From Enterobacteria phage CHB7, in sequence record MK562504.1: a DNA stretch of 64,000 nt; one strand, written 5' to 3'. The notes under the pieces were generated by a model. It was given only the letters and a program-made list of their open reading frames with translations. It was not told the origin of the DNA and did not search any database. Position numbers and translations under genes: made by a program. Of the stretch, positions 2,925 to 63,982 are shown in pieces; position 1 is the first letter of the stretch; each line of letters begins with the position of its first letter.

Positions 2925-3136
2925 AGAACCTCCACAATAAATTTTTTAAACTTTTTACGCAGCTTTCTGATTTGCTTTTTTGTAGGTTTTACACAAAATT
3001 GATAACTCTCAATAATAGCTTGTCTATCATCAGGCATGTCGGATTCTGTGAACCAAAGCACCCAATAAGATTCTTGATACCCTCCGAAACAACTTTGACT
3101 ACCAGCAGTGAAGTATAAATCTGTGTTGAACTCCAT
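2921..3136 (-). CDS. hypothetical protein (71 aa)
   Basis: ORF with 4-nt overlap to the downstream gene; sits just after a terminator hairpin. Confidence 0.35.
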   Translation of the reverse strand: MEFNTDLYFTAGSQSCFGGYQESYWVLWFTESDMPDDRQAIIESYQFCVKPTKKQIRKLRKKFKKFIVEVL

Positions 3137-3150
3137 AGTCTTCTCCAGAA

Positions 3151-3176
3151 ATTAAAAAGGCTCCCGTAGGAGCCTC
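3151..3176 (-). terminator. intrinsic terminator
   Basis: Hairpin AGGCTCC-CGTA-GGAGCCT followed by a T-run on the minus strand, directly downstream of the NadV-like gene. Confidence 0.5.
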
Positions 3177-3189
3177 TTATAATAATTAT

Positions 3190-5016
3190 TTAAAGCTGTC
3201 TGTCAATAACATTTCGTACATCACGAAGGTTAACGTAGCCATATGGCTGAGAGTCGCAGAATACCAGCTTCAGAGCACACTGAGGGTTATCCAGTACACT
3301 TTCAAACTCTGCAAAACCAAAGCCATCTACAGCTTCCAGCTTATCACCATCCCACATAGGGACTACACCACCAAAAGCCGACTTCTTAAGACCACTGTCA
3401 GTTTTAGGGTCTTTTGCCAGCATGATTTCTTCACCATCCATCTGTGCAAGAGTTGCTTTAACAGCAAATGCAAAGGTATCACGAGTCATGTACTGGTAAG
3501 TATATGAACCAACACCAAAGACAACGTTAGAACTTGCAAAGCCCTTTTCAGCAAGACGGCTAAGAATCTCTTCAGCACGTTCCAAAGTGATAGAATCACC
3601 GTAGATTAAACCAATGTGTTCATCAAGAACTTTGTAGCCTTTAGAGTTTACAGCGCCACCAAAGATGTTGTACAGAGTCTTGATAGCACCATCAATTTCT
3701 GCTGTCAGCATTGGTTTAACAACAACTTGACCAGTCTTGTAAGTATCTTTCAGGTTAACTGTGTCAGCAACGTTAAAGTCTTCTGCATCAACAACCAACT
3801 CATAACCTTCAGAGATTAGCCAAGCAGAGAAGCCATAGCCCATATCTGACATGTTACAATTAAGGATTGCATCAAGCAGATAAGTATTGTTAGGAGAAAT
3901 GGTTGACATGTGTTTGTAATACATACTCTTAGCATTTTCCCATTCAATTGCACGATAGCCAGTAACAATGTGTACAGGGTCACCGGAATCTGGACGGATT
4001 ACCAGTTTACCATCACGTTTCAGGATTACTTCACGGAGTTCTGGAAGAATCTCTGTAACTGTACGCCAGAAGTTGTAAGTATCGGACACAACACTTGTAA
4101 TACCAGTTGGGTAAACATCTACCAGCAGGTGTTCAAATGTTTTAACCTCACCACGCCAGCGTTTAGCATCCAGCAAACTATCAGACTGCATGATGTACTG
4201 TGAGTGGATATCATCTTCTGTCAGGTCTTTCATATTCCATGAAATGTTTGCACACATAACGGAATGTTCAGTTGCTGGAACAGAGTTACCAATATCACTT
4301 ACAGTCATAAACTGACCATATGCACGTTTAGCAGTATACACAGCAGGGAAGCTATCAGTTCCTTTAAAGCTGGTCAAGTGGCCTACAGTATTGAAAGCAT
4401 CATCGGTAAAGCCAGACATACCACGCATTGCAAAGTCATGACACTGCCAAGGAAGATGGAAGTCATTGTCACAGGTCTTGTCAGCCCAAGATTTACAGAT
4501 ACGTTTGTAGTGCAGTGCAATAGTTGCAATGGTACAAGCTTTCCAGATTTCAGCAGAGAAAGCATCTTCCAGATAACCAGCTACCCAATGGAAACCTTCA
4601 ACGGTATTTTTGAAGATAATCATTGGAACACGCATAGGAACAACTGTACCTTCTTCAACAGAGTACACTGCAACTGGCAGATAGCCTAAGTCGTGAAGTT
4701 CTTCCCAATGATGACGCTTGATAGCATCTGCACCAAGAACACCATTCATGATTTCTAAGATTTCATCAACAGCTTCTTTCTTATCACGTTCGAAGAAAGT
4801 TGCGTTCCAATGGTCTACTAAGTAATCTTTAACGAAACGTTGGATACCAAAAGCCACTACACCGTCAATTGCTAAAGGGCTGTTAAACCATTTATCACTA
4901 CGTGGTGTCAGGTTGAACATCAAGTATTCTGTTGCACTAGGATACTGGTAAACATGACCAGATTTGTAAGCATCTGCATTTAAACCTGCTGGTACTGCAT
5001 AAAGTGATTTAGTCAT
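3190..5016 (-). CDS. nadV: nicotinamide phosphoribosyltransferase family protein (NadV/Namat-like), 608 aa with C-terminal extension
   Basis: N-terminus (NADAYKSGHVYQYP) and overall layout match the NAMPT family; it is about 110 aa longer than a typical NadV. Confidence 0.8.
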   Translation of the reverse strand: MTKSLYAVPAGLNADAYKSGHVYQYPSATEYLMFNLTPRSDKWFNSPLAIDGVVAFGIQRFVKDYLVDHWNATFFERDKKEAVDEILEIMNGVLGADAIKRHHWEELHDLGYLPVAVYSVEEGTVVPMRVPMIIFKNTVEGFHWVAGYLEDAFSAEIWKACTIATIALHYKRICKSWADKTCDNDFHLPWQCHDFAMRGMSGFTDDAFNTVGHLTSFKGTDSFPAVYTAKRAYGQFMTVSDIGNSVPATEHSVMCANISWNMKDLTEDDIHSQYIMQSDSLLDAKRWRGEVKTFEHLLVDVYPTGITSVVSDTYNFWRTVTEILPELREVILKRDGKLVIRPDSGDPVHIVTGYRAIEWENAKSMYYKHMSTISPNNTYLLDAILNCNMSDMGYGFSAWLISEGYELVVDAEDFNVADTVNLKDTYKTGQVVVKPMLTAEIDGAIKTLYNIFGGAVNSKGYKVLDEHIGLIYGDSITLERAEEILSRLAEKGFASSNVVFGVGSYTYQYMTRDTFAFAVKATLAQMDGEEIMLAKDPKTDSGLKKSAFGGVVPMWDGDKLEAVDGFGFAEFESVLDNPQCALKLVFCDSQPYGYVNLRDVRNVIDRQL

Positions 5017-5020
5017 CTTT

Positions 5021-5042
5021 TAATCTCTCTCAAAATGGGGCT
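5021..5042 (-). terminator. intrinsic terminator
   Basis: Hairpin GGGGCTT-TT-AAGCCCC with T-rich tail on the minus strand, downstream of the Prs-like gene. Confidence 0.45.
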
Positions 5043-5061
5043 TTTAAGCCCCTATAAAGTT

Positions 5062-5943
5062 TCAATCAAGGTTTGCTACAGTAACTTGACCATAATGTGT
5101 TAAGCCACGGTCTTTAGCTTCCCCTAAAGAGTTTGTAGTGTAGATGTGGTCAATGCCATTGTCAAGAAGGTTTTCAACACCTTTAGAGAAGATACCATGT
5201 GTTACATAAAGCTCAACACGTTTTGCACCTGCTTCACGTAGGTGTTTAGCTGCCTCTACGAAGGTTCGACCACCATCACAGATATCATCAAGAATCATGA
5301 CGGTTTTATCGGTCAAATCAACATCGTCAAGGATTCGCATACCAGTGATTTCTCCAGTCTTAAGATTTCGCACCTTAGACATTGTGATATATGGTTTATC
5401 CACCTCTTTAGCAGTCTCTGCAATCTTCTTAGAAGCACCTGCATCTGGGGCTACTAAGTAATCAATTAGAGGGTCATTTGCATAGTGGACTGCAATCTCC
5501 TTTTGAGGAATACTCTGGAAGCAGTTAAACAGGTTATCTGGTACATAGCTGTGAGGGTCAACTGCACAGACTGCGCCAAACCCCATTGCATTAATCTGTT
5601 TAGCAAAAACCTTTAAAGCTGCTGCGTCACCTTTAAACATGTGACGGTCATATCGTGCATTTGGTAAGTAGTAAAATATGACAGTCTTTAAAGCATAATC
5701 ATGAGGAACTAAATCGTCAATTGCTTCTTTAGCCAGTGCCACAGCAAACAGTGTGTCTTTGTCATAACCCTTTACAATCATAACCACATTGTTAATAGAT
5801 GATGCTGCATAAGCAGTAAAATCAACAAGCTCTTGTGAAAAGTGGCCACCAATCTCACCAGAAGGGAATTGGATGATGTTAAACTCTTCTTCATGAGTTC
5901 CTTTAGTCGGTGAATGAATTGTGACACGGATAGATGTTTTCAT
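5062..5943 (-). CDS. ribose-phosphate pyrophosphokinase family protein (Prs/Adps-like)
   Basis: Phosphoribosyltransferase PRPP-binding motif (VMILDDICDGGRTF) and Prs-like architecture. Start is probably the internal ATG at 5943 (MKTSIRV); the track ORF runs to 5958. Confidence 0.75.
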   Translation of the reverse strand: MKTSIRVTIHSPTKGTHEEEFNIIQFPSGEIGGHFSQELVDFTAYAASSINNVVMIVKGYDKDTLFAVALAKEAIDDLVPHDYALKTVIFYYLPNARYDRHMFKGDAAALKVFAKQINAMGFGAVCAVDPHSYVPDNLFNCFQSIPQKEIAVHYANDPLIDYLVAPDAGASKKIAETAKEVDKPYITMSKVRNLKTGEITGMRILDDVDLTDKTVMILDDICDGGRTFVEAAKHLREAGAKRVELYVTHGIFSKGVENLLDNGIDHIYTTNSLGEAKDRGLTHYGQVTVANLD

Positions 5944-33072: not shown

Positions 33073-33338
33073 AAATCTTTAAAGTTGAACATTGTTACAT
33101 GGAGAGTGGTGAGCCAATTCGTTGTCCTCATTGTGGTGGTACAGACTTCCAAGGTGAGGTTAAAGATATTGTCTCTGGTCATGTAGCAGAAGAGTATACT
33201 CGTTGCCGTGGCTGTATGAATATTGTTTCATTTTGGGCTTATGGGAGTTATGAGCCACATCCACATATTATTTACCATCCAGTTAAAGTAGTGAAGAACG
33301 TCATCAACTGGTTTATCATTAAAGGATTTTTCAAATGA
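33069..33338 (+). CDS. zinc-ribbon protein (89 aa)
   Basis: CPHCGG...CRGC four-cysteine motif. Confidence 0.4.
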   Translation: MKIFKVEHCYMESGEPIRCPHCGGTDFQGEVKDIVSGHVAEEYTRCRGCMNIVSFWAYGSYEPHPHIIYHPVKVVKNVINWFIIKGFFK

Positions 33339-33880
33339 TTCGTTTAGTATTTGCAAGTGGTCGTAAAGGTGAGTTTGGTACTCCTGATGGGATGCCTTGG
33401 GAACGCAACCGTGAAGACATGAAAGAGTTTAAAAAGCTGACTCAAAACCAGCTTGTAATCATGGGTAACGAGACTTTCAAGACTCTTGGACGTAAACCTT
33501 TACCAAATCGTGAGAACATGATTCTGTCAAACAACCTCCCGTATTACGGGATAGATTTTGATAATGATGGTTTTGTTATTGCAAAGGTTGACCCAGATTC
33601 TTTCGGTGCATTCTTGAAAAAGATTGACAGTCAGATTGATGAAAATGTCTGCGTGATTGGTGGTGCAAACATCTTGAAAGCAGCTTTACCGTTTGCTGAT
33701 GAAGTTTACCACACAGTTATCTATGAAATTACTAAAGAGCCAACTGTGTATCTTCCTGAAGAGGGATTCTTTGAGTATTTACACGAGCCTGAACTATTTG
33801 CTAGAATACAGGCTAAACCTCTGGATGATAAATCTGGGTTGGTCAATTTCTATGTTCCACAAGTAAGAGGACGTTTCTGA
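33335..33880 (+). CDS. frd: dihydrofolate reductase
   Basis: N-terminus MIRLVFASGRKGEFGTPDGMPW and VIGGANILKAALPFADE align with the T4 Frd/DHFR pattern. Confidence 0.75.
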   Translation: MIRLVFASGRKGEFGTPDGMPWERNREDMKEFKKLTQNQLVIMGNETFKTLGRKPLPNRENMILSNNLPYYGIDFDNDGFVIAKVDPDSFGAFLKKIDSQIDENVCVIGGANILKAALPFADEVYHTVIYEITKEPTVYLPEEGFFEYLHEPELFARIQAKPLDDKSGLVNFYVPQVRGRF

Positions 33881-33881
33881 T

Positions 33882-34778
33882 ATGTCACAAGCAGATGTAA
33901 GCTACAAAAATATTCTGAACCACGTTTTAACAGTTGGCGAGCAGCGTAAAACCCGAACTGGTTCTGTAATTTCAACGTTCTCACCCCCAGAGTTTCGTTT
34001 TGATATGCGTACTGGTTTTCCTTTACTAACCTCTAAACAGGTTCTGACCAGACAAGTTATCGGAGAAGCTTTATGGTTCTTGAATGGTGAGAATAAACTT
34101 GGTCATCTTCGCTATCGTACTTGGGGAGAAAATGATGGAGAACGTTGGACAATTTGGACAAATGACTTCGAGCGATGGCTTAAAACAACGTATGCAAGTG
34201 AGCAAGATTGGCTTGATGATGCAGGTGGACGAATCTACGGTGTACAGTGGAGAGCCTCAGAAGGTCATGGTGGCGTTACAGTTGACCAGCTAGATAATCT
34301 GATTACCAAGATGAAAAAGTCTCCTACAGACCGTTACATGCTGGTTAATGCTTGGAATGCTGCTGATATATCAGCTAATGCAATGGCTTTACCACCTTGT
34401 CATGTGCTTTTCCAGATTTACATCTCAAATACTGGTGAAGTTGATTTAAAATGGTATCAACGTTCTGTAGACAGCTTCTTAGGTTTACCATTTAACATTG
34501 CATCTTATGGTTTTATCTTGGAAGTGCTTTGTAAGATGACTGGATACACACCTCGTTATCTGATTGGTACTTTTGGTGATACTCAGATTTATCAAAACCA
34601 TATGAATCAGGTATTCCAGCTTTTAGGTAATGAAGAGTTTCCTGCACCAAAGTTTGAGATTATCCAAGATTTGAAATGTCTGGATGACCTCAAACATATG
34701 ACTGCAAGTGACTTTATCGGTGGTTTCAAAGACTATCGACATGCTGGGAAGATTGAAGCTCCTTTGTCAGTAGGTTGA
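33882..34778 (+). CDS. thyA: thymidylate synthase
   Basis: Conserved ThyA blocks: RTGTG-like RTGSV, GFPLLTSK, active-site LPPCH, and FLGLPFNIASY. Confidence 0.85.
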   Translation: MSQADVSYKNILNHVLTVGEQRKTRTGSVISTFSPPEFRFDMRTGFPLLTSKQVLTRQVIGEALWFLNGENKLGHLRYRTWGENDGERWTIWTNDFERWLKTTYASEQDWLDDAGGRIYGVQWRASEGHGGVTVDQLDNLITKMKKSPTDRYMLVNAWNAADISANAMALPPCHVLFQIYISNTGEVDLKWYQRSVDSFLGLPFNIASYGFILEVLCKMTGYTPRYLIGTFGDTQIYQNHMNQVFQLLGNEEFPAPKFEIIQDLKCLDDLKHMTASDFIGGFKDYRHAGKIEAPLSVG

Positions 34779-34817: not shown

Positions 34818-35192
34818 TTATTTTTTCTTAGCGTTTTGAGTGTTCTGTTCAGTGATTGCTTGCAAAGCTGATACAGACTGTGCTAGGTTATTAACACTGT
34901 CAGAGAATTTATCAAGGGTTTTGGTCAACTTGGCGTTTTCACCCTTTACGTTCTCTAGCTGAACTTTCTGGTTCTCCATGCCTAATTGCAGGAGTTTCAT
35001 GTCAGACTGCAAATCACGAATAGCTGAATAGTTGCTTTTGTTGTAACTATCAAGCTGTTGTAACTTTGTCGAAACGGAAACTTCCTGCTTCCCACTAGAC
35101 ACCTGCATTGTAGTGTACATACCAATTACACTGAAGATACCCACAACAATTGCACCAATGTTATTTTTGAAAGCATCCTCTAACCACTTCAT
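34818..35192 (-). CDS. membrane-anchored coiled-coil protein (124 aa)
   Basis: N-terminal hydrophobic helix (IGAIVVGIFSVIGMY) followed by a Q/K/L-rich coiled coil. Confidence 0.4.
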   Translation of the reverse strand: MKWLEDAFKNNIGAIVVGIFSVIGMYTTMQVSSGKQEVSVSTKLQQLDSYNKSNYSAIRDLQSDMKLLQLGMENQKVQLENVKGENAKLTKTLDKFSDSVNNLAQSVSALQAITEQNTQNAKKK

Positions 35193-35386
35193 TCTTTCTC
35201 CCCTTTAAAGGCTTTTTCCAAGTTGTTAACAAATTCATCATCAATAGGCGTATCTGTCTTACTCGCAAGGTATCTTGCAAGTCTGAAGAAGGCTTTCTCA
35301 ATCATGTATTCACTCAGAAGGGAAAGTAGAAGTTTCCAGAGGAAGCTACCCAAGTTTTTTAAGAGGATTGCTAGGATAGTCGGCAT
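35189..35386 (-). CDS. hypothetical protein (65 aa)
   Basis: Small ORF overlapping the downstream gene by 4 nt. Confidence 0.3.
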   Translation of the reverse strand: MPTILAILLKNLGSFLWKLLLSLLSEYMIEKAFFRLARYLASKTDTPIDDEFVNNLEKAFKGEKE

Positions 35387-35465: not shown

Positions 35466-37811
35466 TTATGCCGTTCTAACCCAAGCCATCAATCTGATAA
35501 ACATATTTACAACACTGAATGCAGAACCAGAACCAGTACCACCAGTGTTACCACTCAATGTGTGGCTGTGAGCACCAATACCAACTGTATGCGTGTGAGC
35601 ACCAGCGGAAGCAGCAGTACCACTAACTGAGTGGGTGTGAGCACCAGCGGAACCAGTGTTGATGTTCCCATAGTTGGTTTTAGAACCAGCACCAACATAA
35701 CCAGTATATTCACCATTCCACGTCTGGTGAGCAGCCATACCATGAACGTGAGCACCAGCGGAAGCAGCAGTACCTGAAACACCATGTGTGTGAGCACCAG
35801 TGCTGTTGGAGGTCTTAGTACCATAGTCGAAGCTTGATGTTGTCGCTGAGAAGCTATGGGTGTGTGAAGGGATGTTGCCTACAGCTAATGTCACAGTATC
35901 TGCACCACCAGTAGTTTTAACATCTGAACCGTTTGCTGCACCGATTCTGACAGTTCTACCAACACCTTCATTTAGATACGTCCAAGTTAATCCCGGAAGG
36001 GTAGTGTTAGGGTTCTGGTTAGTTGCAAACCATGTTACAATACCAACTGGATAAATCTTCTTAAGGTCTGTAGAGTTAGTGATAGCAGCAGAAATTTTAG
36101 CATCAGTTTCTGCCTTAGTGTATGCACCTACATCTCCAGCAGATGGTTTATCAGTTGAGGTGTAAATCTTAGACCAATCTACCTCGAACCCAAAAGCGTC
36201 TCTTGAAGACCTGTAGAAGATACCACCATTTTTGTAGTTGAAACGCAACTGTGCAGAAGGGCATGAACCCTGTGCTTGGTAGAGTTGCAGAATCATCTGT
36301 GAACCACCACCAACAAGGACATTATACAGCCCTGACTTAGCATTCCAAGGAACTGCGTTAAAATCTGTTGAAGTATATGCACCAGTTGCACCAGCTAACA
36401 TAAATCTTGAGTTAGCAGCAGACTGTGTAAAGTATCGTGCATCAAAGTTACCCCAATCAGAAGGTTGAACCTGTCCAGTAATTGCCAAAGTTTTGTTTGC
36501 AGTGATTGTTGAGCCAAGTGTTAGCGTTGAACCATCCACATAGTTTGACAAAACAAGGTTGTTATTGTTGGCACTTCCATTACCCACATACCATCTCATG
36601 GTTCCATCGGAATCAACACCTCTCAAGTAAAGAGCGGCCTGTTTTGTTGCATTTTTCAGCATCAAAGCTTCATTATCAGATGTGATATTTTGCTTTACGC
36701 TGAAGTTGTTTGTTGCGTTAACTCTTGCCAAACTCGATAGTGTTCCGGCAGGAATAAATCTTGAATCAATATTAGTCCAGTCACTAGGTTGAACCTGTCC
36801 AGTAATTGCAAGACTCTTGTTAACTCTTACCATATTGTCAAGTAATACGTAGGTATCGTTTGAGATATTTGTTAAGACAACTGAGTTGCTACCATCTGCA
36901 TAGTTACCTACAGCCCACTTCATAGAAGCATCTGTGTTCTGACCTTCAATATAAAGTGCTTTACCACTTGTCAAGTTCTTAAGAGTTAATCTTGCACCGT
37001 CACCAAGTAACGTTGTAGTCCCTCTGAAGGTGTTGTTTCCAGTAATCGTGTTAGCTGCTGCCAACTGAACAAATCTTTGGTCTGCTGCATCACGAGTATA
37101 GAATCTTGCATCGAAGTTTGCAAAGTCTGAAGGAACAACCTGTCCAGTAACTTGAAGCTGTTTGTTAATCCCTACAGAGCCAGTGCCAAGAACAATATTA
37201 GTGTTCTGTTTGGTGTTTGCAATAGTAACATCAGAACCAGAACTCAAGTTACCAATTGTGAATCTTACTGCATTTGCTGTATCACGACCTTCATAATACA
37301 ATGCAGCAGCCGCAGTGTTCTTTAAAGTTAAACCTGCATTGTCTGTCTGAAAAATCTGACTTGCTGTGAAGGTGTTTTGAGTTCCCTTGATAGCAAACCT
37401 TGCATCATTCTCATCATTAGTTCTCATCCCAAGTTCATTAGGGGATGGCTTATTCAGAGTATGGTAAACTGTTGCATTTCTTGAAGCATCTGCAATAGTC
37501 AGTTTAAGACCATTTGCATTAAGCTTGAAAGTTTTTGCAGTGTCACCGAAGACAATTTCAGAGTTACCTGTTGGGTCAAGTAAATCTTTTCCTCCATAGG
37601 TAAGCTTGACAATCCCTAAATTACCTGTCATGGTTCCACCAACTAATTGCAGAAATCTTTCCAGCTTGAAAGATGCAAGGAAATCTGCATAAGTCATTCT
37701 ACGGTCTTCATCACCTAACATCTCAGTTCTTTTCTTAACTCTGACATGTAATAGGTCATCAGAACGAATTTCGTTAATCGAGTTCAGTTCACTCAATTTA
37801 AATTCTGCCAT
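35466..37811 (-). CDS. tail fibre protein with His-X-His repeat tip
   Basis: 781 aa, Gly/Thr/Asn-rich; C-terminal iterated GAHTHSVSGTAASAGAHVH / HSHTLSG units. AAGAGGA ribosome-binding site and terminator hairpin immediately upstream. Confidence 0.6.
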   Translation of the reverse strand: MAEFKLSELNSINEIRSDDLLHVRVKKRTEMLGDEDRRMTYADFLASFKLERFLQLVGGTMTGNLGIVKLTYGGKDLLDPTGNSEIVFGDTAKTFKLNANGLKLTIADASRNATVYHTLNKPSPNELGMRTNDENDARFAIKGTQNTFTASQIFQTDNAGLTLKNTAAAALYYEGRDTANAVRFTIGNLSSGSDVTIANTKQNTNIVLGTGSVGINKQLQVTGQVVPSDFANFDARFYTRDAADQRFVQLAAANTITGNNTFRGTTTLLGDGARLTLKNLTSGKALYIEGQNTDASMKWAVGNYADGSNSVVLTNISNDTYVLLDNMVRVNKSLAITGQVQPSDWTNIDSRFIPAGTLSSLARVNATNNFSVKQNITSDNEALMLKNATKQAALYLRGVDSDGTMRWYVGNGSANNNNLVLSNYVDGSTLTLGSTITANKTLAITGQVQPSDWGNFDARYFTQSAANSRFMLAGATGAYTSTDFNAVPWNAKSGLYNVLVGGGSQMILQLYQAQGSCPSAQLRFNYKNGGIFYRSSRDAFGFEVDWSKIYTSTDKPSAGDVGAYTKAETDAKISAAITNSTDLKKIYPVGIVTWFATNQNPNTTLPGLTWTYLNEGVGRTVRIGAANGSDVKTTGGADTVTLAVGNIPSHTHSFSATTSSFDYGTKTSNSTGAHTHGVSGTAASAGAHVHGMAAHQTWNGEYTGYVGAGSKTNYGNINTGSAGAHTHSVSGTAASAGAHTHTVGIGAHSHTLSGNTGGTGSGSAFSVVNMFIRLMAWVRTA

Positions 37812-37823
37812 TATACAATCCTC

Positions 37824-37844
37824 TTAAAAGGGGCTAAAAAGCCC
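37824..37844 (-). terminator. intrinsic terminator
   Basis: Hairpin GGGGCT-AAAA-AGCCCC with flanking T-run on the minus strand, between the two tail-fibre genes. Confidence 0.5.
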
Positions 37845-37853
37845 CTGCAATAA

Positions 37854-39165
37854 TTAAGCAGTTCTTTGCCATACATACAGTACGAAAGATGGCTGTTCAA
37901 CGTTGAATGCCTGCCCAGAACCAGTTGACCCTGTTGTACCAGAGTGGGAATGTTCACCTGCTCCAGTGACAGATACAGACACATTGTGATTATGTGAACC
38001 AATAGCCACTGTGTGACTGTGAGAGCCGATTGCCACTGTATGTGTATGAGCACCAGCATTAGCCGCAGTACCACTCACTGAGTGAGTATGGTTACCAGCA
38101 GCCTGAGTATCAGACCAGTAAGCCACTTTTGGTGTGTAGTCATCACCAGATGTGTAGATACCCCCACCACCAGAGTTAACCTCACCTTCTGGAACCTTGT
38201 GAGTGTGGTTACCAGCAGTTGCCGCAGTACCACTAACCGAGTGTGTGTGAGCACCAGCATTGCTGGTCGTCTTTGTACCATAGTCAAAGGTAGTTGAAGA
38301 CTTAGTACCATAGTCAAATGCGCTGATAGACACACTAGTACCGTGTGAGTGACCACCGCCTGTAACATACACTGAGTGAGTGTGAGCAGGAATATTGTTT
38401 GCAGTCAAAGCCACAGTTTGGGAACCAAATGTGGAACCTGCTGGTCTAGCTGCACTGTCCACTAGTACCGTGTGAGTGACCACCGCCTGTAACATACACT
38501 GAGTGAGTGTGAGCAGGAATATTGTTTGCAGTCAAAGCCACAGTTTGGGAACCAAATGTGGAACCTGCTGGTCTAGCTGCACTGTCATAACCCACAAGTG
38601 CTCTACCTTTTGATACTAGCTCCCAAGTACCTCCACAAATCAAGTAAGTGGATGGGTTAGCAGCATTCATAGACAAGTGAATAGTCCCAACTGGATATGA
38701 AGCCTGAACAGCCCTGTATAGACTATTAACTGCTCTTGCTGTAGCATACTTATCAGCATCTTCATTATATGCGTTAGAAGCTAACCAGTTCTGCACATTA
38801 CCTAAACCGACTTGTGATTTAGTTGTGTTGTGAGGGTTATTCTTATCATTAATGTGAGCCTGAATAAGTTGGTTAACTTCATCAGAAGACATGATTTGCA
38901 AGTTTGCTCTTGCTTCAGCGACGTCAACGATATCTGATAGGTTGTTTGCAGCGACAAGCTGTAAAGCGTTTAATACGTTACCTAATTCAACCTGAACCTT
39001 TGTAACGCCGTGAGGGTTATTTCTCAATGATGCGTGTGGGTCAAGTAATTGTTCAAGTGTACACCTCTTATCCTCAATACCTTGTTTAAGGTGGAAGATA
39101 TCACTTAGCTCAATTGGTAACGATGCTTGAGGCAAGGCACTAATTTGAATTTCACCTACTGCCAT
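37854..39165 (-). pseudogene. second tail fibre gene, frameshifted by a 127-bp tandem duplication
   Basis: Track ORFs 38446..39165 and 37854..38495 both encode the same 42-aa segment DSAARPAGSTFGSQTVALTANNIPAHTHSVYVTGGGHSHGTS; removing one repeat copy restores a single ORF of about 394 aa. Confidence 0.55.
38333..38586. repeat. perfect 127-bp direct tandem duplication (2 copies)
   Basis: 38333..38459 and 38460..38586 are identical by eye (CACTAGTACCGTGTGAGTGACC...CTGGTCTAGCTGCACTGTC). Confidence 0.85.
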
Positions 39166-39167
39166 TA

Positions 39168-39482
39168 TTAGCCTCCAATAAATTCATAAGTGTACTGGTT
39201 AGTTGTACTTGTTGGAGCAGTCCCTGTCACGGTATTAATAAGGCTCCATCCAGCCGATACTAAATCAGGTTGCTCGGTAGCAAAGCTTCTAACTTCACCT
39301 ACAATAGCTGTTGTCCCATTTGCCCTTTCCAACAAATAGTTTAAAATATAATTATACCACTGACGACCCATTGGCTCACCACGTAGTAAACCTGTTGCCT
39401 GAATCTCAGGAGGTGGTAACACTTTTAACTGGTTACCATCAGCGTCTACATCATCTGTAGCCCATCTTACTGCATCTGCCAT
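39168..39482 (-). CDS. hypothetical tail/baseplate-associated protein (104 aa)
   Basis: Intact ORF between the baseplate genes and the tail fibre. Confidence 0.35.
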
Positions 39483-40339
39483 TATGAACTTCCTTCCTGT
39501 TGAGATTTATCTTTTCTGCCTTTGATGATTTGTGCAACTTCAGCCATTACACCATAACCACCACCTGCGACTGTTTCTTTACCGACGATAAAGTTGTCGT
39601 TACTGTTATTTGTCCTGCTCACATTCAAATAATCTTTTGAAGTGCTTCCAGCAGTTCTGTCAATCCTGAAATAGCCGTCTCTGATACCTGCGTCTGCCAA
39701 GCTACCTAATAAGTTAGCCTCAAGAGAACCACCTGTGTTATTAGTGACAAGACCTTTGTTGTTATCTGTTACAAACCAGTTATCTTTGTCATCAACAATA
39801 GCTAAGGCTGAGTCAGCAACCTCTACAGGTGTCCAAGCAGTACCATTCAAAGTTACATCTCGTAAGATGACTGCTGAACCAATTGTTGTTGCAGCAATCC
39901 TTGAAAGTGTGTATGCTGTATCTAGAACGTTATTTCTGGTATTAACACGAATAACAATACCACCAGTCATAGGTGTGATATGCTCAAACACCTGTGAAAA
40001 GGTAGCATTGTATAGTGTCATTACGGCATTTTGAAGAAACGCTGGAGTTGTGTCAGAACGTCTTAGGAAAATCTGGATATACAGCATTGCACGATATGTG
40101 TCATCATCAGCACCGAGTGGTCTTGGTACTTTAATCAAAGCTCCAATATTGTCTAATTGCTGACCAATAGCTGTACGGATATTACGTTCTGTATGCATCT
40201 GCCAAGTAATATCCTCTAATAATTGTAACTCATCTGTAATAGATTTCAATAGGCTAGTGTAAATAAACTTTTCTTTGAATTGAGTTACAGTTCTTTCATC
40301 CAATGTTTTGTAATAGACGTCTTCAATCTTTTCAAACAT
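39482..40339 (-). CDS. baseplate/tail-fibre attachment protein (putative)
   Basis: 285 aa; position after the J-like protein and before the fibres, as in P2/Mu-like baseplate modules. Confidence 0.3.
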
Positions 40340-40341
40340 TG

Positions 40342-41810
40342 TTACTCCTTAGTGATAGTGTACTGGCTGCTTTCCCATACCGTATACTGGTCACCGTCAA
40401 CTGTGATTCTTGCTGTGGTATACTGGTCATCTGATGGTGGTACTGCTTGGTTGTTTGAAAGGGCAACTTTGATTTCGTTGATTTCAATACCTTGAATAAC
40501 ATCATAGATATAACCATAGATTCTGTTAGGAATCACATCATTACCAACTTTTAGGGTTCTGCCATAGTCATTAATACCCTGCACAATATTTTCATGAATA
40601 TCTGCTTCAGGGATTGTCAAACTTTCTTCATCATAAAGTGAGTAAGACACTTTCACGAATACATACTTTGGTGTTGGTCTACTAAAGTAAACATTGTGAG
40701 CCAAGTTTCCAAGGTCATATGCAGTACCAAAGATGGAACCATAAGCCCTAATACCAGCAGGTTTCGTATCCCAGATAGCTTGAGCAACGTTATCGTTCTG
40801 ACCACCTACAACGACAATCTTGAAAGATTTCGGAGGAATACCATCAGGAGTTGTTGTCTCAGTATCGTTTTCAACACCTGAAGCATCTGACACACCCTGA
40901 ACTCTCTTGACAGCAGCAACGATAGCATCTAAAGTACCTACACCAGTAACGGTTAAAGATTCTAGGTAACGTTGACGAAGTTCTGTATCAGTTTCTTCAT
41001 CACGTCCTGTTGTTAGGTCGTATCTGTTAAATACACTATCAAGACCATCTACAGTTGTTTCAATCTCAATCAGAGTTCCTGCCAAAGCTGGCATAGCACC
41101 AACCTCTTCAGCGACTACATCATGAATTGTAGTAATCTTCGTAAAGCTTAAGAATGTCGTTGCAGTAACAACCATAGGGTTTGTTCTGGCAATGATATCT
41201 CCTTCATCTTTGTAGATTCTTAGAGATGACCCATCATCAATAACTTCAGCTTTTGCAACAATACCACCATTAATAGCATCTGCAAGCTCATTGAGTAAAG
41301 TTGTGATAGTATCTGAAGAAGTTGGTTGATAAGAGAAAACAACGTTATCAATAATAATAACATAGTTTGCATCAGTACGTAAAGAGTTAACTTCTAAGAC
41401 CGCTTCAACACAGTAAGATGGTGTCAAGGTGAACGTAGATACTGGATAGAAAATATTACCAGCAGTACTTCTTAATCTTGTTGTTGCAGGAATTGAAGCA
41501 CCAGTCGTACCAGTAAATTCAGCCTGACCTCTAGTAGCTTGAGCAACATATCTGTAGATTGCGTTTAAGGCTGTGATATCATCTAGGTTGAATCCTTCAG
41601 CTTTATCAATGGTGTTGCCATCATAAATCTCAGACAGAACTTCATGGGTATCTGCCAAAGCTCTTGCTACTGATGCTAAGAACAGACCTAACTGGCTGTC
41701 TTCAGATACGTCAAGGTTTGGGGAGATATCTCTTAAAAGTCTTGCTTTGATATTGTCAAAGATTTCTTGATATCTCAATGTTTGTAATCCTGTTGCGGTT
41801 AATCCAGCCA

Positions 41811-41811
<1 letters not shown>
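40342..41811 (-). CDS. baseplate J-like protein
   Basis: 489 aa; size and gene order (after W-like and V-like proteins) fit the baseplate J family. Confidence 0.45.
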
Positions 41812-61472: not shown

Positions 61473-61547
61473 TGGAGCATCCAGAGGGAATCGAACCCTC
61501 AACCTCAGTTTGGAAGACTGTAATTTTCCCGTTTAAACTATGGATGC
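61473..61547 (-). tRNA. tRNA-Gly (UCC)
   Basis: Anticodon loop CTTCCAA, T-loop TTCGATT, CCA. Confidence 0.6.
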
Positions 61548-61553
61548 ACTAAT

Positions 61554-61629
61554 TGGTGGAGAAGCAGGGAATTGAACCCTGTACTTAAGTTTGCAAAACT
61601 TATGTTTTAACCATGTAAACTACATCCCC
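61554..61629 (-). tRNA. tRNA-Ala (UGC)
   Basis: Anticodon loop TTTGCAA; G3-U70 wobble in the acceptor stem; T-loop TTCAATT; CCA. Confidence 0.65.
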
Positions 61630-61635
61630 AATGTT

Positions 61636-61711
61636 TGGTACAGGTGGAGGGAATTGAACCCATCGTCTTACTGATTAAGAGTCAGCCGCATAACCATTTT
61701 GCTACACCTGC
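61636..61711 (-). tRNA. tRNA-Lys (CUU)
   Basis: Anticodon loop CTCTTAA, T-loop TTCAATT, CCA. Confidence 0.6.
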
Positions 61712-61718
61712 ATTAATT

Positions 61719-61796
61719 TGGTAGGAGACAAGGGATTCGAACCCTCAAACACCAACTTCTAAGGATGGTAGGTTTACCAATTACCGTCAATCTCCC
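61719..61796 (-). tRNA. tRNA with anticodon UAG (Leu by anticodon), short variable region
   Basis: Anticodon loop CTTAGAA in an arm nearly identical to the Val(UAC) tRNA; T-loop TTCGAAT; CCA. Confidence 0.5.
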
Positions 61797-62024
61797 ATTA
61801 AATCTTTGTAGAGAACTGCTAAGACGCCAAAGCAACAATGGTATCAAATGCCTTAACAATTCTCTAAAAAGACCTAACTGGTCTTTGCATAGTCTTGTTT
61901 AATCCGGTGACTAGAACCTTTGGAGAGCTTGATATTATCTCTTCTCCGTGACACCTACTAGGTGCTTTGTTGTGCGTGTACGACAATACACGAGGGAAAC
62001 CGAACGCTGTACCAGAGCGTGGGC

Positions 62025-62366
62025 TTAAATCTTTAAGCTAAGTTCAGTCTTGGACTTGACATCTTTAGCTTTGTAGATGACGACTTTATCAAGTGGTTCA
62101 ATGTAAACAGCTAAGTAATCAACTTGAGAGTTATCAAAATTCATTATTCTATTTTCATTCTTGTTAGAACGAACTCTTTTCAGTTGCACTCTCCAAAGTT
62201 CACCTCTTTTGACTGATGTTGATTTTACCTCAACAGTCTCAATCAAACCATCTTTGTGAACTAGAAAGTCATACTTTGCATTATCTGTAGCTGGTGAATA
62301 CACTTCATAACCTCTTTTGAGGAAAGCTAATTGTGTAGCAATTTCACCTACTGAACCTTTCTTCAT
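62025..62366 (-). CDS. PD-(D/E)xK-type nuclease-like protein (113 aa) inside the tRNA array
   Basis: GSVGEIATQLAFLKRGYEV...DFLV...IETVEVKS has the spacing of a restriction-endonuclease-like core. Start set at ATG 62366 with an AAGGTGGTGA ribosome-binding site; the track extension runs into tRNAs. Confidence 0.45.
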   Translation of the reverse strand: MKKGSVGEIATQLAFLKRGYEVYSPATDNAKYDFLVHKDGLIETVEVKSTSVKRGELWRVQLKRVRSNKNENRIMNFDNSQVDYLAVYIEPLDKVVIYKAKDVKSKTELSLKI

Positions 62367-62388
62367 AATCACCACCTTAAAATTATTT

Positions 62389-62475
62389 TGGCAGAGAGTG
62401 CAGGAGTTGAACCCGTACCGTTTCCAGCAGCACCAGTTTTCAAGGCTGGTTGGTCTCCGTTGACCGCCACTCTCT
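62389..62475 (-). tRNA. tRNA-Ser (UGA), long variable arm
   Basis: Anticodon loop CTTGAAA, extended variable arm, T-loop TTCAACT, CCA. Confidence 0.55.
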
Positions 62476-62488
62476 CCGAAACAATCTT

Positions 62489-62571
62489 TGGCATGGGACG
62501 GAGGAATCGAACCCCTTTGAGTAAGTTTTGGAGGCTTACGCACATGCCTTAGTGTCTTAACATCGTCCCAT
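62489..62571 (-). tRNA. tRNA-Trp (CCA), atypical 83-nt form
   Basis: Anticodon stem GTAAG/CTTAC with loop CTCCAAA; T-loop TTCGATT; CCA; acceptor ATGGGAC/GTCCCAT. About 7 extra nt between acceptor and D-stem. Confidence 0.45.
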
Positions 62572-62713
62572 ATATTATTTCGAAGCTTACCGTATTATCA
62601 CAACACTGTAAAGCCCCTTCTCAGATTATTTACATGTTCTGGAAAACATGAGATACAGACCACCTCCCTACAGGAAGACCCGCTTAGGTCGTCTAAGTAA
62701 TCTGCTAACTATT

Positions 62714-62790
62714 TGGTAGCCAAGGTAGGAGTCGAACCTACTTACTCTCGAAGGTAGCTAACCTTCAGTAACTTTCCGACTTTCGTACAT
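62714..62790 (-). ncRNA. tRNA-like element / possible degenerate tRNA
   Basis: Perfect T-arm (GTAGG-TTCGACT-CCTAC) and 3' ...CTTGGCTACCA, plus a perfect GAAGG-TTAGCTA-CCTTC stem-loop, but I could not pair a 5' acceptor strand at a tRNA-compatible distance. Confidence 0.3.
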
Positions 62791-62840
62791 CTGTTAACAT
62801 GTATTCAGATGGCTTACTAGTGTTGTCTTGACCATTAAAC

Positions 62841-62917
62841 TGGCACACCCTACAGGACTCGAACCTGTAACTCAGTGCTTAGAAGGCACTTGCTCTATCC
62901 AATTGAACTAAGGGTGC
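62841..62917 (-). tRNA. tRNA-Arg (UCU)
   Basis: Perfect anticodon stem AGTGC/GCACT, loop CTTCTAA; T-loop TTCGAGT; CCA. Confidence 0.65.
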
Positions 62918-63167
62918 ATTCTTATCTTTAAAGGCTCTCTTAGAAAACCCTTAAAGATGCCCACATTATTAATCATACCGTGGGCGAGTACGCCAAATTC
63001 TTTGATGAGGGGTTGGAAGACCTCACTGGTGTTTAGCCTATTAAGCTACTGCCAGAAAAACATTATCGTTTGCATTTATTTTAGTTTGCAAAAATAGACG
63101 CTACGCTAACGAAAACTAAGGTTACTATAAAGTGGTCACATCTGAATGTCAACAACTTTATCGAATT

Positions 63168-63243
63168 TGGTAGTGGTAGCAGGAATCGAACCTGCGATGT
63201 TCGGTTATCAGCCGAGTGTTATGACCGTCTTAACTATACCACC
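63168..63243 (-). tRNA. tRNA-Ile (GAU)
   Basis: Anticodon loop CTGATAA, T-loop TTCGATT, CCA. Confidence 0.65.
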
Positions 63244-63245
63244 AT

Positions 63246-63322
63246 TGGAGGTTCAGATGGGATTCGAACCCACATTCATAGGGCTTATGAAACCCTTGCA
63301 TTACCTTATCTGCGACTGAACC
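63246..63322 (-). tRNA. tRNA-Met (CAU)
   Basis: Perfect acceptor GGTTCAG/CTGAACC, anticodon loop TTCATAA, T-loop TTCGAAT, CCA. Initiator, elongator or Ile2 identity not resolved. Confidence 0.65.
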
Positions 63323-63331
63323 ATAATAAGT

Positions 63332-63396
63332 TGCCCTTTGGAGAAGAACTATTGAGTGGGTGTTTCCAGCCGCGCAGGTGTTCTTCAGTTAAGGGC
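63332..63396. other. long imperfect inverted repeat
   Basis: GCCCTT...GAAGAAC...(GC-rich loop CCAGCCGCGCAGG)...GTTCTTC...AAGGGC forms a two-tier stem of about 65 nt between two tRNAs. Confidence 0.35.
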
Positions 63397-63401
63397 TAAT
63401 T

Positions 63402-63477
63402 TGGTAGGAGTGGAGGGATTCGAACCCTTCGCCTGTCAGATTAAAAGTCTGCCGCATCACCATTCTGCTACACTCCC
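63402..63477 (-). tRNA. tRNA-Lys (UUU)
   Basis: Anticodon loop CTTTTAA, T-loop TTCGAAT, CCA. Confidence 0.6.
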
Positions 63478-63659
63478 ATTGAATCATCTTTGCAGTAACC
63501 TACGCAAACCTTGCTAAAGGGTTTGTAGAGTCATTTCCTATTAAGCTAATCTAGAATCATGCTAAGGAAATTCATCGGCACTCATGGGACGACATTTAGC
63601 TCCATAAGTCACTGCAAAGAGGATTACCAGACCGTTGTTTATCTTAAGTGCTCCCATTA

Positions 63660-63745
63660 CACCAACACGCCGTAACGTGTGAAGGAATCGAACCTTCGCC
63701 TTTTCTTTACCAGAGAAATAGATTGTTTTATACTTGCTGTAAACG
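63660..63745 (-). ncRNA. tRNA remnant / pseudo-tRNA (putative)
   Basis: Good T-arm (GAAGG-TTCGATT-CCTTC) and a perfect anticodon-like arm (TTTCT-CTGGTAA-AGAAA), but no matching acceptor stem and no CCA. Confidence 0.25.
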
Positions 63746-63904
63746 GTCTTCTGTAAATTTGTTGAGCCAGACCAAGTTTTAAATTTTTCAAAATTAAATT
63801 GGCTTGAAATTTTTTAAGTTGGCTTGCTGAATTTGGTCTTCTGCTCCTTTAAAGAACACTCGTAAGAACTCTTTAAGGGAGGGGCTAAAAAGCCCTCTCA
63901 AATT

Positions 63905-63982
63905 TGGCGGTTACGAAGGGATTCGAACCCTCATCATCTCCCGTGACAGGGGAGTATTTTAACCAGATTAAACTACATAACC
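63905..63982 (-). tRNA. tRNA-Asp (GUC)
   Basis: Perfect anticodon stem CTCCC/GGGAG, loop CTGTCAC; T-loop TTCGAAT; CCA. Confidence 0.65.

Follow-up and report, generated by a model that had tools for sequence, protein, structure and literature searches.

This locus raises the question of how the two tail fibres of Enterobacteria phage CHB7 end, and of how many genes are needed to encode them. The stretch of DNA analysed, referred to here as the window, comprises 64,000 nucleotides (nt) of sequence record MK562504.1. An initial annotation, made from the sequence by itself, proposed that both fibre proteins carry iterated His-X-His (HxH) motifs consistent with metal-binding needle tips. The tail/baseplate module lies on the minus strand, with open reading frames (ORFs) at 35466-37811 (781 amino acids, aa), 37854-38495 (213 aa), and 38446-39165 (239 aa); the 213-aa and 239-aa ORFs overlap each other, and both are upstream of the long fibre gene. 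It is very probable that both baseplate fibres of CHB7, an E. coli phage of the genus Suspvirus, end in an HxH needle tip of the type found in gp37 of phage T4, that the short tail fibre (STF) is encoded by one gene of 394 aa beside that of the long tail fibre (LTF), and that the 127-base-pair (bp) duplication which splits the STF gene is likely an artefact. The features concerned are:

35466-37811, minus strand: LTF gene, complete, 781 aa, with an N-terminal attachment region, a shaft, and then collar, needle, and head.
35466-36062, minus strand: putative receptor-binding tip of the LTF, aa 584-781 (Gp10_C match aa 584-779; 2xgf alignment aa 640-758).
35595-35621 and 35748-35774, minus strand: two exact direct repeats of 27 nt, 153 nt apart, encoding G-T-A-A-S-A-G-A-H of two LTF His boxes.
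37854-39165, minus strand: STF gene, split by the 127-bp duplication; with one copy removed it is an ORF of 1185 nt for 394 aa.
37854-38459, minus strand: STF tip still in frame past the duplication, aa 194-394, with distal collar, needle, and head.
37985-38055, minus strand: tandem array of a 27-nt (9-aa) unit, VAIGSHSHT/VAIGSHNHN (Tandem Repeats Finder: period 27, 2.6 copies, 70% matches).
38333-38459 and 38460-38586: exact tandem duplication of 127 bp, two copies, which frameshifts the STF gene and duplicates aa 194-235 with the first two HxH motifs.

The motifs quoted in the initial annotation are all present. Six HxH motifs are found in the LTF, starting at aa 650, 674, 688, 725, 739, and 748, all within aa 650-750, and they stand in the contexts GAHTHGVSGTAASAGAHVH (aa 672-690), GAHTHSVSGTAASAGAHTH (aa 723-741), and GAHSHTLSG (aa 746-754). 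The restored STF, from which one copy of the duplication has been removed, carries nine (aa 219, 230, 264, 278, 317, 331, 340, 349, and 363; codons within 37944-38511), in contexts such as GAHTHSVSGTAATAGNHTH, GNHTHSVSGTAANAGAHTH, and GGHSHGTS. The raw DNA encodes eleven STF motifs, since two of the nine lie inside the duplicated 127 bp. Both counts are above every one of 20,000 residue shuffles: 0.27 motifs were expected against six observed in the whole LTF and 1.4 against nine in the whole STF, and the observed number was never reached. When only the His-rich tips were shuffled, P was about 5e-5 or less.

An alignment with gp37-type tips, which the initial annotation had suggested as a check, gave matches for both proteins. 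When the PDB was searched with phmmer, the restored STF matched the T4 gp37 tip (2xgf) with E=8.2e-25 over chain residues 17-229 of 242, including collar, needle, and head, and the LTF tip matched it with E=1.9e-11 over chain residues 89-216. The collar of the STF also matches T4 gp10 chains (E=5e-05), and the Gp10_C profile is found on both fibres, with E=2.5e-19 on the restored STF and E=4.3e-06 on the LTF (28.1 bits; cut-off 27 bits). In the LTF tip, a gp10/gp37-type collar is followed by the needle with the six HxH motifs (codons within 35562-35864) and by a C-terminal strand that leads back to the collar.

The motifs were compared in a three-way alignment of the LTF tip, the STF tip, and T4 gp37 residues 785-1026 (gene 37 translated from its GenBank record). 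Seven HxH motifs are present in the T4 tip, at 883, 915, 929, 966, 980, 989, and 998. The STF matches all seven and has two extra motifs, one after the first and one after the last, and all six boxes of the LTF align with the first six of the seven T4 motifs. The gaps between successive HxH motifs, in aa, are:

T4 gp37: 32, 14, 37, 14, 9, 9
LTF: 24, 14, 37, 14, 9
STF: 11, 34, 14, 39, 14, 9, 9, 14

The gap series 14 / 37-39 / 14 / 9 / 9 is common to the three tips; the needle is conserved in register and the head segment in size. The 27-nt array of the STF consists of HxH boxes at nine-residue spacing on the descending needle strand and aligns with T4 IGAHTHTVAIGSHGH. The 2XGF matches, the one-to-one alignment of the HxH motifs, and the precedent of phage Bas63 (PMC12609058) bear out the gp37-type needle of the initial annotation, of which the trimer and the bound metal would follow by homology. 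T4 gp12, which had been named beside gp37 as a model for the ion column, fares less well: no gp12 chain was matched at E<=1, only gp37 and gp10.

To assess conservation, the STF tip was aligned with 37 homologues from databases (38 sequences), which share 30-64% identity with it. Three His pairs, two of the Gly residues before them, and one Arg never vary, and other His pairs reach at least 90% conservation. Such a pattern would arise if the constraint acts on the histidines as such. Among Suspvirus relatives (EP1, mistaenkt, and SUSP2) the STF has seven boxes, two on the ascending and five on the descending strand of the needle, compared with four plus five in this phage and three plus four in T4. 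Therefore, the ascending and descending needle strands need not bear equal numbers of the putative metal-binding boxes. Suspvirus fibres with six, seven, or nine HxH boxes offer a natural series for relating needle length to metal sites.

Identity between the LTF and STF tips is 39% and falls mostly on the needle boxes. No alignment is obtained for the head segments, the about 37-39 aa between motifs 3 and 4 (37 aa in the LTF). A shared motif family in different surroundings, as described initially, is therefore what is found, and the two specificities that had been drawn from it are plausible. In T4 gp37, the stretch between motifs 3 and 4 is the receptor-contacting head. The distal STF tip is a unique allele. 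Its best full-length nucleotide identity is 67.5% among 50,697 phage records, a collection that does not include CHB7 itself, and its best protein identity by tblastn is about 66%. The nearest proteins besides that of CHB7, all 46-57% identical, are Ounavirinae fibres, proteins from Logan assemblies and metagenomes, and tail fibres annotated in E. coli and Enterobacter genomes, the last of which are likely lambdoid-prophage side fibres. Such an allele may serve host-range engineering.

A proposed architecture of the two tips can be described as follows. By homology with T4 gp37, each fibre would be a homotrimer, and the tip would consist of a gp10/gp12-like collar, a six-stranded beta-needle, and a small head, with each chain running out of the collar, along the needle, through the head, and then back. 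In each G-x-H-x-H box the two histidines would point toward the three-fold axis, so that three chains would supply six ligands to one octahedral metal ion (Fe2+ in T4). A column of about six ions is predicted for the LTF and one of seven to nine for the STF; these ions may rivet and thereby stabilise a very thin beta-needle. The head would make the receptor contact. With conserved needle boxes, and a head between boxes 3 and 4 that is hypervariable and different in each fibre, two receptor specificities might result.

The LTF also matches fibre families outside its tip. PHROG 4277 (‘tail fiber protein’) spans the whole protein, and EP1, SUSP2, and mistaenkt have orthologues with a tail-fibre annotation. 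Pfam matches are gp37_trimer (PF20744) three times, gp37_C, Gp10_C, and Phage_fiber, the identifiers also including PF12604, PF21939, and PF03335. Phage_fiber (PF03335) reaches 25.6 bits on the LTF, above its gathering cut-off of 20 bits; on the STF it stays below this value (19.9 bits for the fragment and 16.1 bits for the restored protein). A Mu-S/gp37_C-like domain lies before the collar at aa ~482-581, LTF aa 470-574 match the Mu tail fibre S (8ju3) with E=2.8e-32, and one of the shaft repeats has a match in the T7 fibre. The shaft is a mosaic: the Mu-S-like domain (36060-36400 of the window, aa ~470-582) is replaced in EP1 by an unrelated, longer segment. The third shaft repeat also varies among relatives.

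The second fibre gene had initially been taken as 37854-38495, which is only the downstream fragment of the split gene at 37854-39165. Both fragments match consecutive, overlapping parts of one profile, phrog_2097 (profile positions 205-474 and 424-600). With one copy of the duplication removed, the 394-aa protein is collinear with the 382-aa orthologues, which are intact in EP1, mistaenkt, and SUSP2. The 213-aa ORF opens with 12 codons that read the duplicated segment out of frame. Therefore, the two ORFs are one gene, with 37854-38495 as its 3' fragment. The deposited CHB7 record annotates a 202-aa ‘putative tail fiber protein’ that is 100% identical to the downstream ORF when read from an internal GTG; therefore, the deposited record carries the split gene too. 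The STF gene is also a mosaic, in which the proximal part (38587-39165, the first ~190 codons) is nearly identical to that of Suspvirus relatives and the distal tip (37854-38332) is unique; the breakpoint adjoins the duplicated segment.

The two copies of the duplication are 100% identical, and the match extends 0 bp on either side, leaving no microhomology at the junction, where GGTCTAGCTGCACTGTC of one copy is followed by CACTAGTACCGTGTGAGTG of the next. On one side the duplication begins with codon 194, within the collar and on a codon boundary; its other end lies just past the second HxH motif. Since 127 is not divisible by three, the reading frame shifts. It is the only exact repeat of this kind in the 64 kb, it is absent from the intact orthologues of EP1, mistaenkt, and SUSP2, and a search for its junction in IMG/VR contigs gave no match.

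The initial annotation had regarded the repetitive DNA of the His boxes as the substrate of the 127-bp event. Slippage between these repeats was rejected as its origin: the ends lie outside the repeats, the junction has 0 bp of homology, and the product is out of frame. The idea of the repeats as a recombination substrate may find its example in the LTF of a relative. Compared with the LTF of SUSP2, that of mistaenkt has an in-frame deletion of 147 nt (49 aa), exactly between 22-nt direct repeats spaced 147 nt apart. These repeats encode the AASAGNH part of two boxes and correspond to the 27-nt repeats of the LTF in the window, which could serve as a substrate for deleting or duplicating a segment in frame. 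The mistaenkt deletion (mistaenkt 3067-5268 versus SUSP2 3067-5415 in the extracted loci) takes away two HxH motifs and the entire head segment. It may be either a real repeat-mediated event or a repeat collapsed in assembly. Whereas it is in frame and ends within direct repeats, the 127-bp duplication does neither.

What is known of genome assembly offers a different origin for the duplication. Circularly permuted phage genomes assembled with SPAdes bear an artificial 127-bp overlap at their ends that needs trimming (PMC5923482; PMC8104045). The length of the duplication equals the largest SPAdes k-mer (127), and an untrimmed k=127 end overlap, in a contig that was then re-opened elsewhere, would produce an exact interior tandem duplication of 127 bp. 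The duplication is probably an assembly artefact and not biology, a reading favoured by the fact that the phage was isolated as viable although the event inactivates one of its conserved virion genes. If the duplication were genuine, the phage would make only a 239-aa N-terminal stub, and it would either infect by the LTF only or regain the STF by collapse of the copies in a reversible on/off manner. This is unlikely, yet it has some evidence in its favour, since the duplication is in the deposited genome, where the truncated 202-aa ORF is annotated, it adjoins the breakpoint at which the tip departs from its relatives, and tail-fibre genes are known rearrangement hotspots, with a repeat-mediated 147-nt deletion in a relative. 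On the other hand, its length is exactly that of a documented artefact, the maximum SPAdes k-mer, its copies are identical without microhomology at the junction, it would destroy a conserved virion gene of which all examined relatives have an intact version, and the downstream ORF has no plausible start or Shine-Dalgarno sequence of its own. The stronger form, a switch that normally keeps the STF off until recombination restores the nine-HxH protein with its unique tip allele as a phase-variable second specificity, is decidedly improbable. It might also be argued that 37854-38495 is an independent second fibre gene and 38446-39165 a separate, different baseplate protein, given that the window has both reading frames open and that the downstream ORF is annotated by itself in the public record. 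However, the two have in common the 42 duplicated residues DSAARPAGSTFGSQTVALTANNIPAHTHSVYVTGGGHSHGTS, match one family profile consecutively, and fuse upon removal of a copy into a protein collinear with the 382-aa orthologues, while the downstream ORF begins with 12 out-of-frame codons; this explanation can hardly be entertained. The STF of CHB7 is thus to be read as one 394-aa gene, and the duplication should be checked against the sequencing reads before any biological interpretation.

With regard to the tips themselves, the HxH boxes might be only a structural beta-strand repeat, or ‘His boxes’ for recombination, with no metal bound. A relative does show a repeat-mediated in-frame deletion between such boxes, Pfam treats the unit as a mere ‘phage tail fibre repeat’, and metal binding by these fibres is a matter of homology. 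Yet it is the histidines, not just the repeat, that are invariant down to about 30% identity, and they match the Fe-binding motifs in the T4 tip structure residue by residue; moreover, a structural or recombinational role and a metal-binding role are not mutually exclusive. An absence of metal is accordingly very improbable. T4 gp12 has a single Zn site and not an ion column, and the STF, as the shorter, baseplate-proximal fibre with a collar of the gp10/gp12 class, could be thought to be of this kind instead of a multi-ion gp37 needle. Since its PDB matches contain no gp12 chain even at E<=1, while the gp37 match (E=8e-25) covers collar, needle, and head, and since it has nine HxH motifs and not one, a gp12-type STF is most improbable.

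Several points weigh against the preferred reading of two gp37-type needles and an artefactual duplication. The extra STF motifs at aa 230 and 363 have no T4 counterpart, and their metal occupancy is a guess. The assignment of Fe as opposed to Zn is borrowed from T4 by analogy. An AlphaFold2 model of the monomeric 201-aa STF tip (38 aligned sequences) was poor, with a predicted local distance difference test score of 55.5 and a predicted template modelling score of 0.21, and a Foldseek search of the PDB with this model gave nothing significant, the best match being the C24 tip from Bizionia (E=6.8). A poor monomer is to be expected because the tip would be an interdigitated trimer, and both results speak neither for nor against the needle. 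With respect to the duplication, the artefact would be deduced from the number 127, the frameshift, and the missing microhomology. Moreover, divergence from the Suspvirus relatives jumps just past the duplicated segment, near gene position ~690, with 0-7 differences per 30 nt before this position and 9-25 after it. A duplication abutting a mosaic breakpoint could hint at a real recombination-associated event.

The surroundings of the fibre genes are those of an Ounavirinae baseplate. Relatives in Suspvirus (Ounavirinae, Felix-O1-like myophages) show about 88-92% nucleotide identity over the fibre region, and the adjacent 25 kb share 96-97% identity with EcSzw-2, mistaenkt, PC79-13, and EP1 of this genus. 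The neighbouring genes are:

40342-41811, minus strand: wedge 2, 489 aa, Baseplate_J (Pfam/PHROG, and order as in Bas63).
39482-40339, minus strand: wedge 1, 285 aa (Pfam/PHROG, and order as in Bas63).
39168-39482, minus strand: LTF platform candidate, 104 aa, assigned by position only.
35189-35386, directly downstream of the LTF: membrane-like ORF, 65 aa, phrog_402 of unknown function.
34818-35192, downstream of the LTF: ORF of 124 aa, in a PHROG of unknown function; the orthologue is annotated as holin in SUSP2 and mistaenkt.

On the minus strand, the ORFs of 489, 285, and 104 aa are thus followed by the STF and then the LTF. In Bas63, the order is wedge 2 (489 residues), wedge 1 (285 residues), LTF platform gp25, STF gp26, and LTF gp27 (gp23-gp27; PMC12609058), i.e. 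the same gene order with identical wedge lengths of 489 and 285. Among the ORFs immediately downstream of the fibres (34818-35386), the only ones looked at for a fibre chaperone, there is no gp38- or Tfa-like gene directly after the fibres. Other ORFs in the region (up to 71 aa on the plus strand and up to 97 aa in alternative frames of the minus strand) were set aside as by-products of repetitive coding DNA. Elsewhere in the window, a cluster of 21 tRNA genes, including tRNA-His(GTG), lies at 58936-63982 on the minus strand and is typical of Ounavirinae. The guanine-cytosine (GC) skew turns from negative to positive near 24 kb and back toward negative after ~36 kb. Such a course fits a block of genes on the plus strand, DHFR (33335-33880) and thymidylate synthase (33882-34778) among them, between minus-strand modules.

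Parts of the two fibres resemble those of quite different phages. Across about 55-64% of the STF tip, its needle boxes share 48-57% identity with those of lambda Stf and of lambdoid-prophage side tail fibres, and the Mu tail fibre S is the counterpart of LTF aa 470-574. These likenesses to lambda and Mu are classic tail-fibre mosaicism. The lambda and Mu fibres have other N-terminal attachment domains and another virion context, as well as separate chaperones (Tfa and U), none of which is evident beside the fibres in the window. With the collar of T4 gp10 and gp12 (PF21939, PF07484) the likeness is confined to the region before the first HxH motif, which matches Gp10_C and T4 gp10 chains; T4 gp10 and gp12 are without a long needle of multiple HxH motifs, and gp12 itself gave no match.

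The resemblance to T4 gp37 extends over the homologous tip, the register and spacing of the G-x-H-x-H boxes, an FDYGTK motif, the head segment of 37-39 aa, and the C-terminal return strand. The number of boxes is seven in T4 compared with six in the LTF and nine in the STF, and the head sequences are unrelated. The T4 protein is the distal part of a kinked long fibre made of four proteins, whereas here each fibre would be one polypeptide on a simple baseplate; T4 also has the dedicated chaperones gp38 and gp57A, and no gene similar to that of gp38 directly follows the fibres here. The GxHxH ‘His boxes’ of T-even gp37 were reportedly recognised by Tetart, Krisch, and colleagues in the 1990s as recombination sites at which tip segments are duplicated or deleted. 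The 27-nt repeat of the LTF and the mistaenkt deletion resemble such events, while the 127-bp duplication is not of that kind. In T4, the seven HxH motifs coordinate Fe ions (PMC12609058).

The closest parallels are found within the same subfamily. Cryo-electron microscopy of the baseplate of Bas63, a Felixounavirus, resolved two fibres, the short gp26 and the long gp27. Each has a T4-gp37-like C-terminal tip of collar, six-stranded HxH needle, and small head, and the HxH motifs number seven for the STF and six for the LTF; the fibre tips are the most variable protein parts across its genus (PMC12609058). Similarly, gp52 and gp53 of Sf14 (Mooglevirus, Ounavirinae) are two fibres with a gp37-like distal tip and a gp10-C-like domain (PMC11821841), and the record of phage wV8 already annotates an orthologue as ‘tail fiber protein GP37’. 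Because the Bas63 study (2025) already describes a short and a long fibre with gp37-like HxH tips, the gp37-like reading of the CHB7 tips is correct but already known. It is of little import beyond annotation, as the gp37-type HxH needle is a textbook tip whose presence on both Ounavirinae fibres was published in 2025. Bas63 and Sf14 share with CHB7 the subfamily, the two fibres with gp37-like HxH tips, and the hypervariability of these tips. In tblastn searches, Felixounavirus orthologues from records other than Bas63 (VpaE1, BPS17L1, Sf18, and others) are 52-57% identical to the STF tip over 93-94% of the query. CHB7 differs from Bas63 in its genus, perhaps in the shaft of the LTF, which by Pfam has three gp37_trimer repeats and a gp37_C/Mu-S-like domain where five gp34-like beta-helix repeats, which might be equivalent units under a different name, are described for Bas63, and in its STF, with nine HxH motifs compared with seven.

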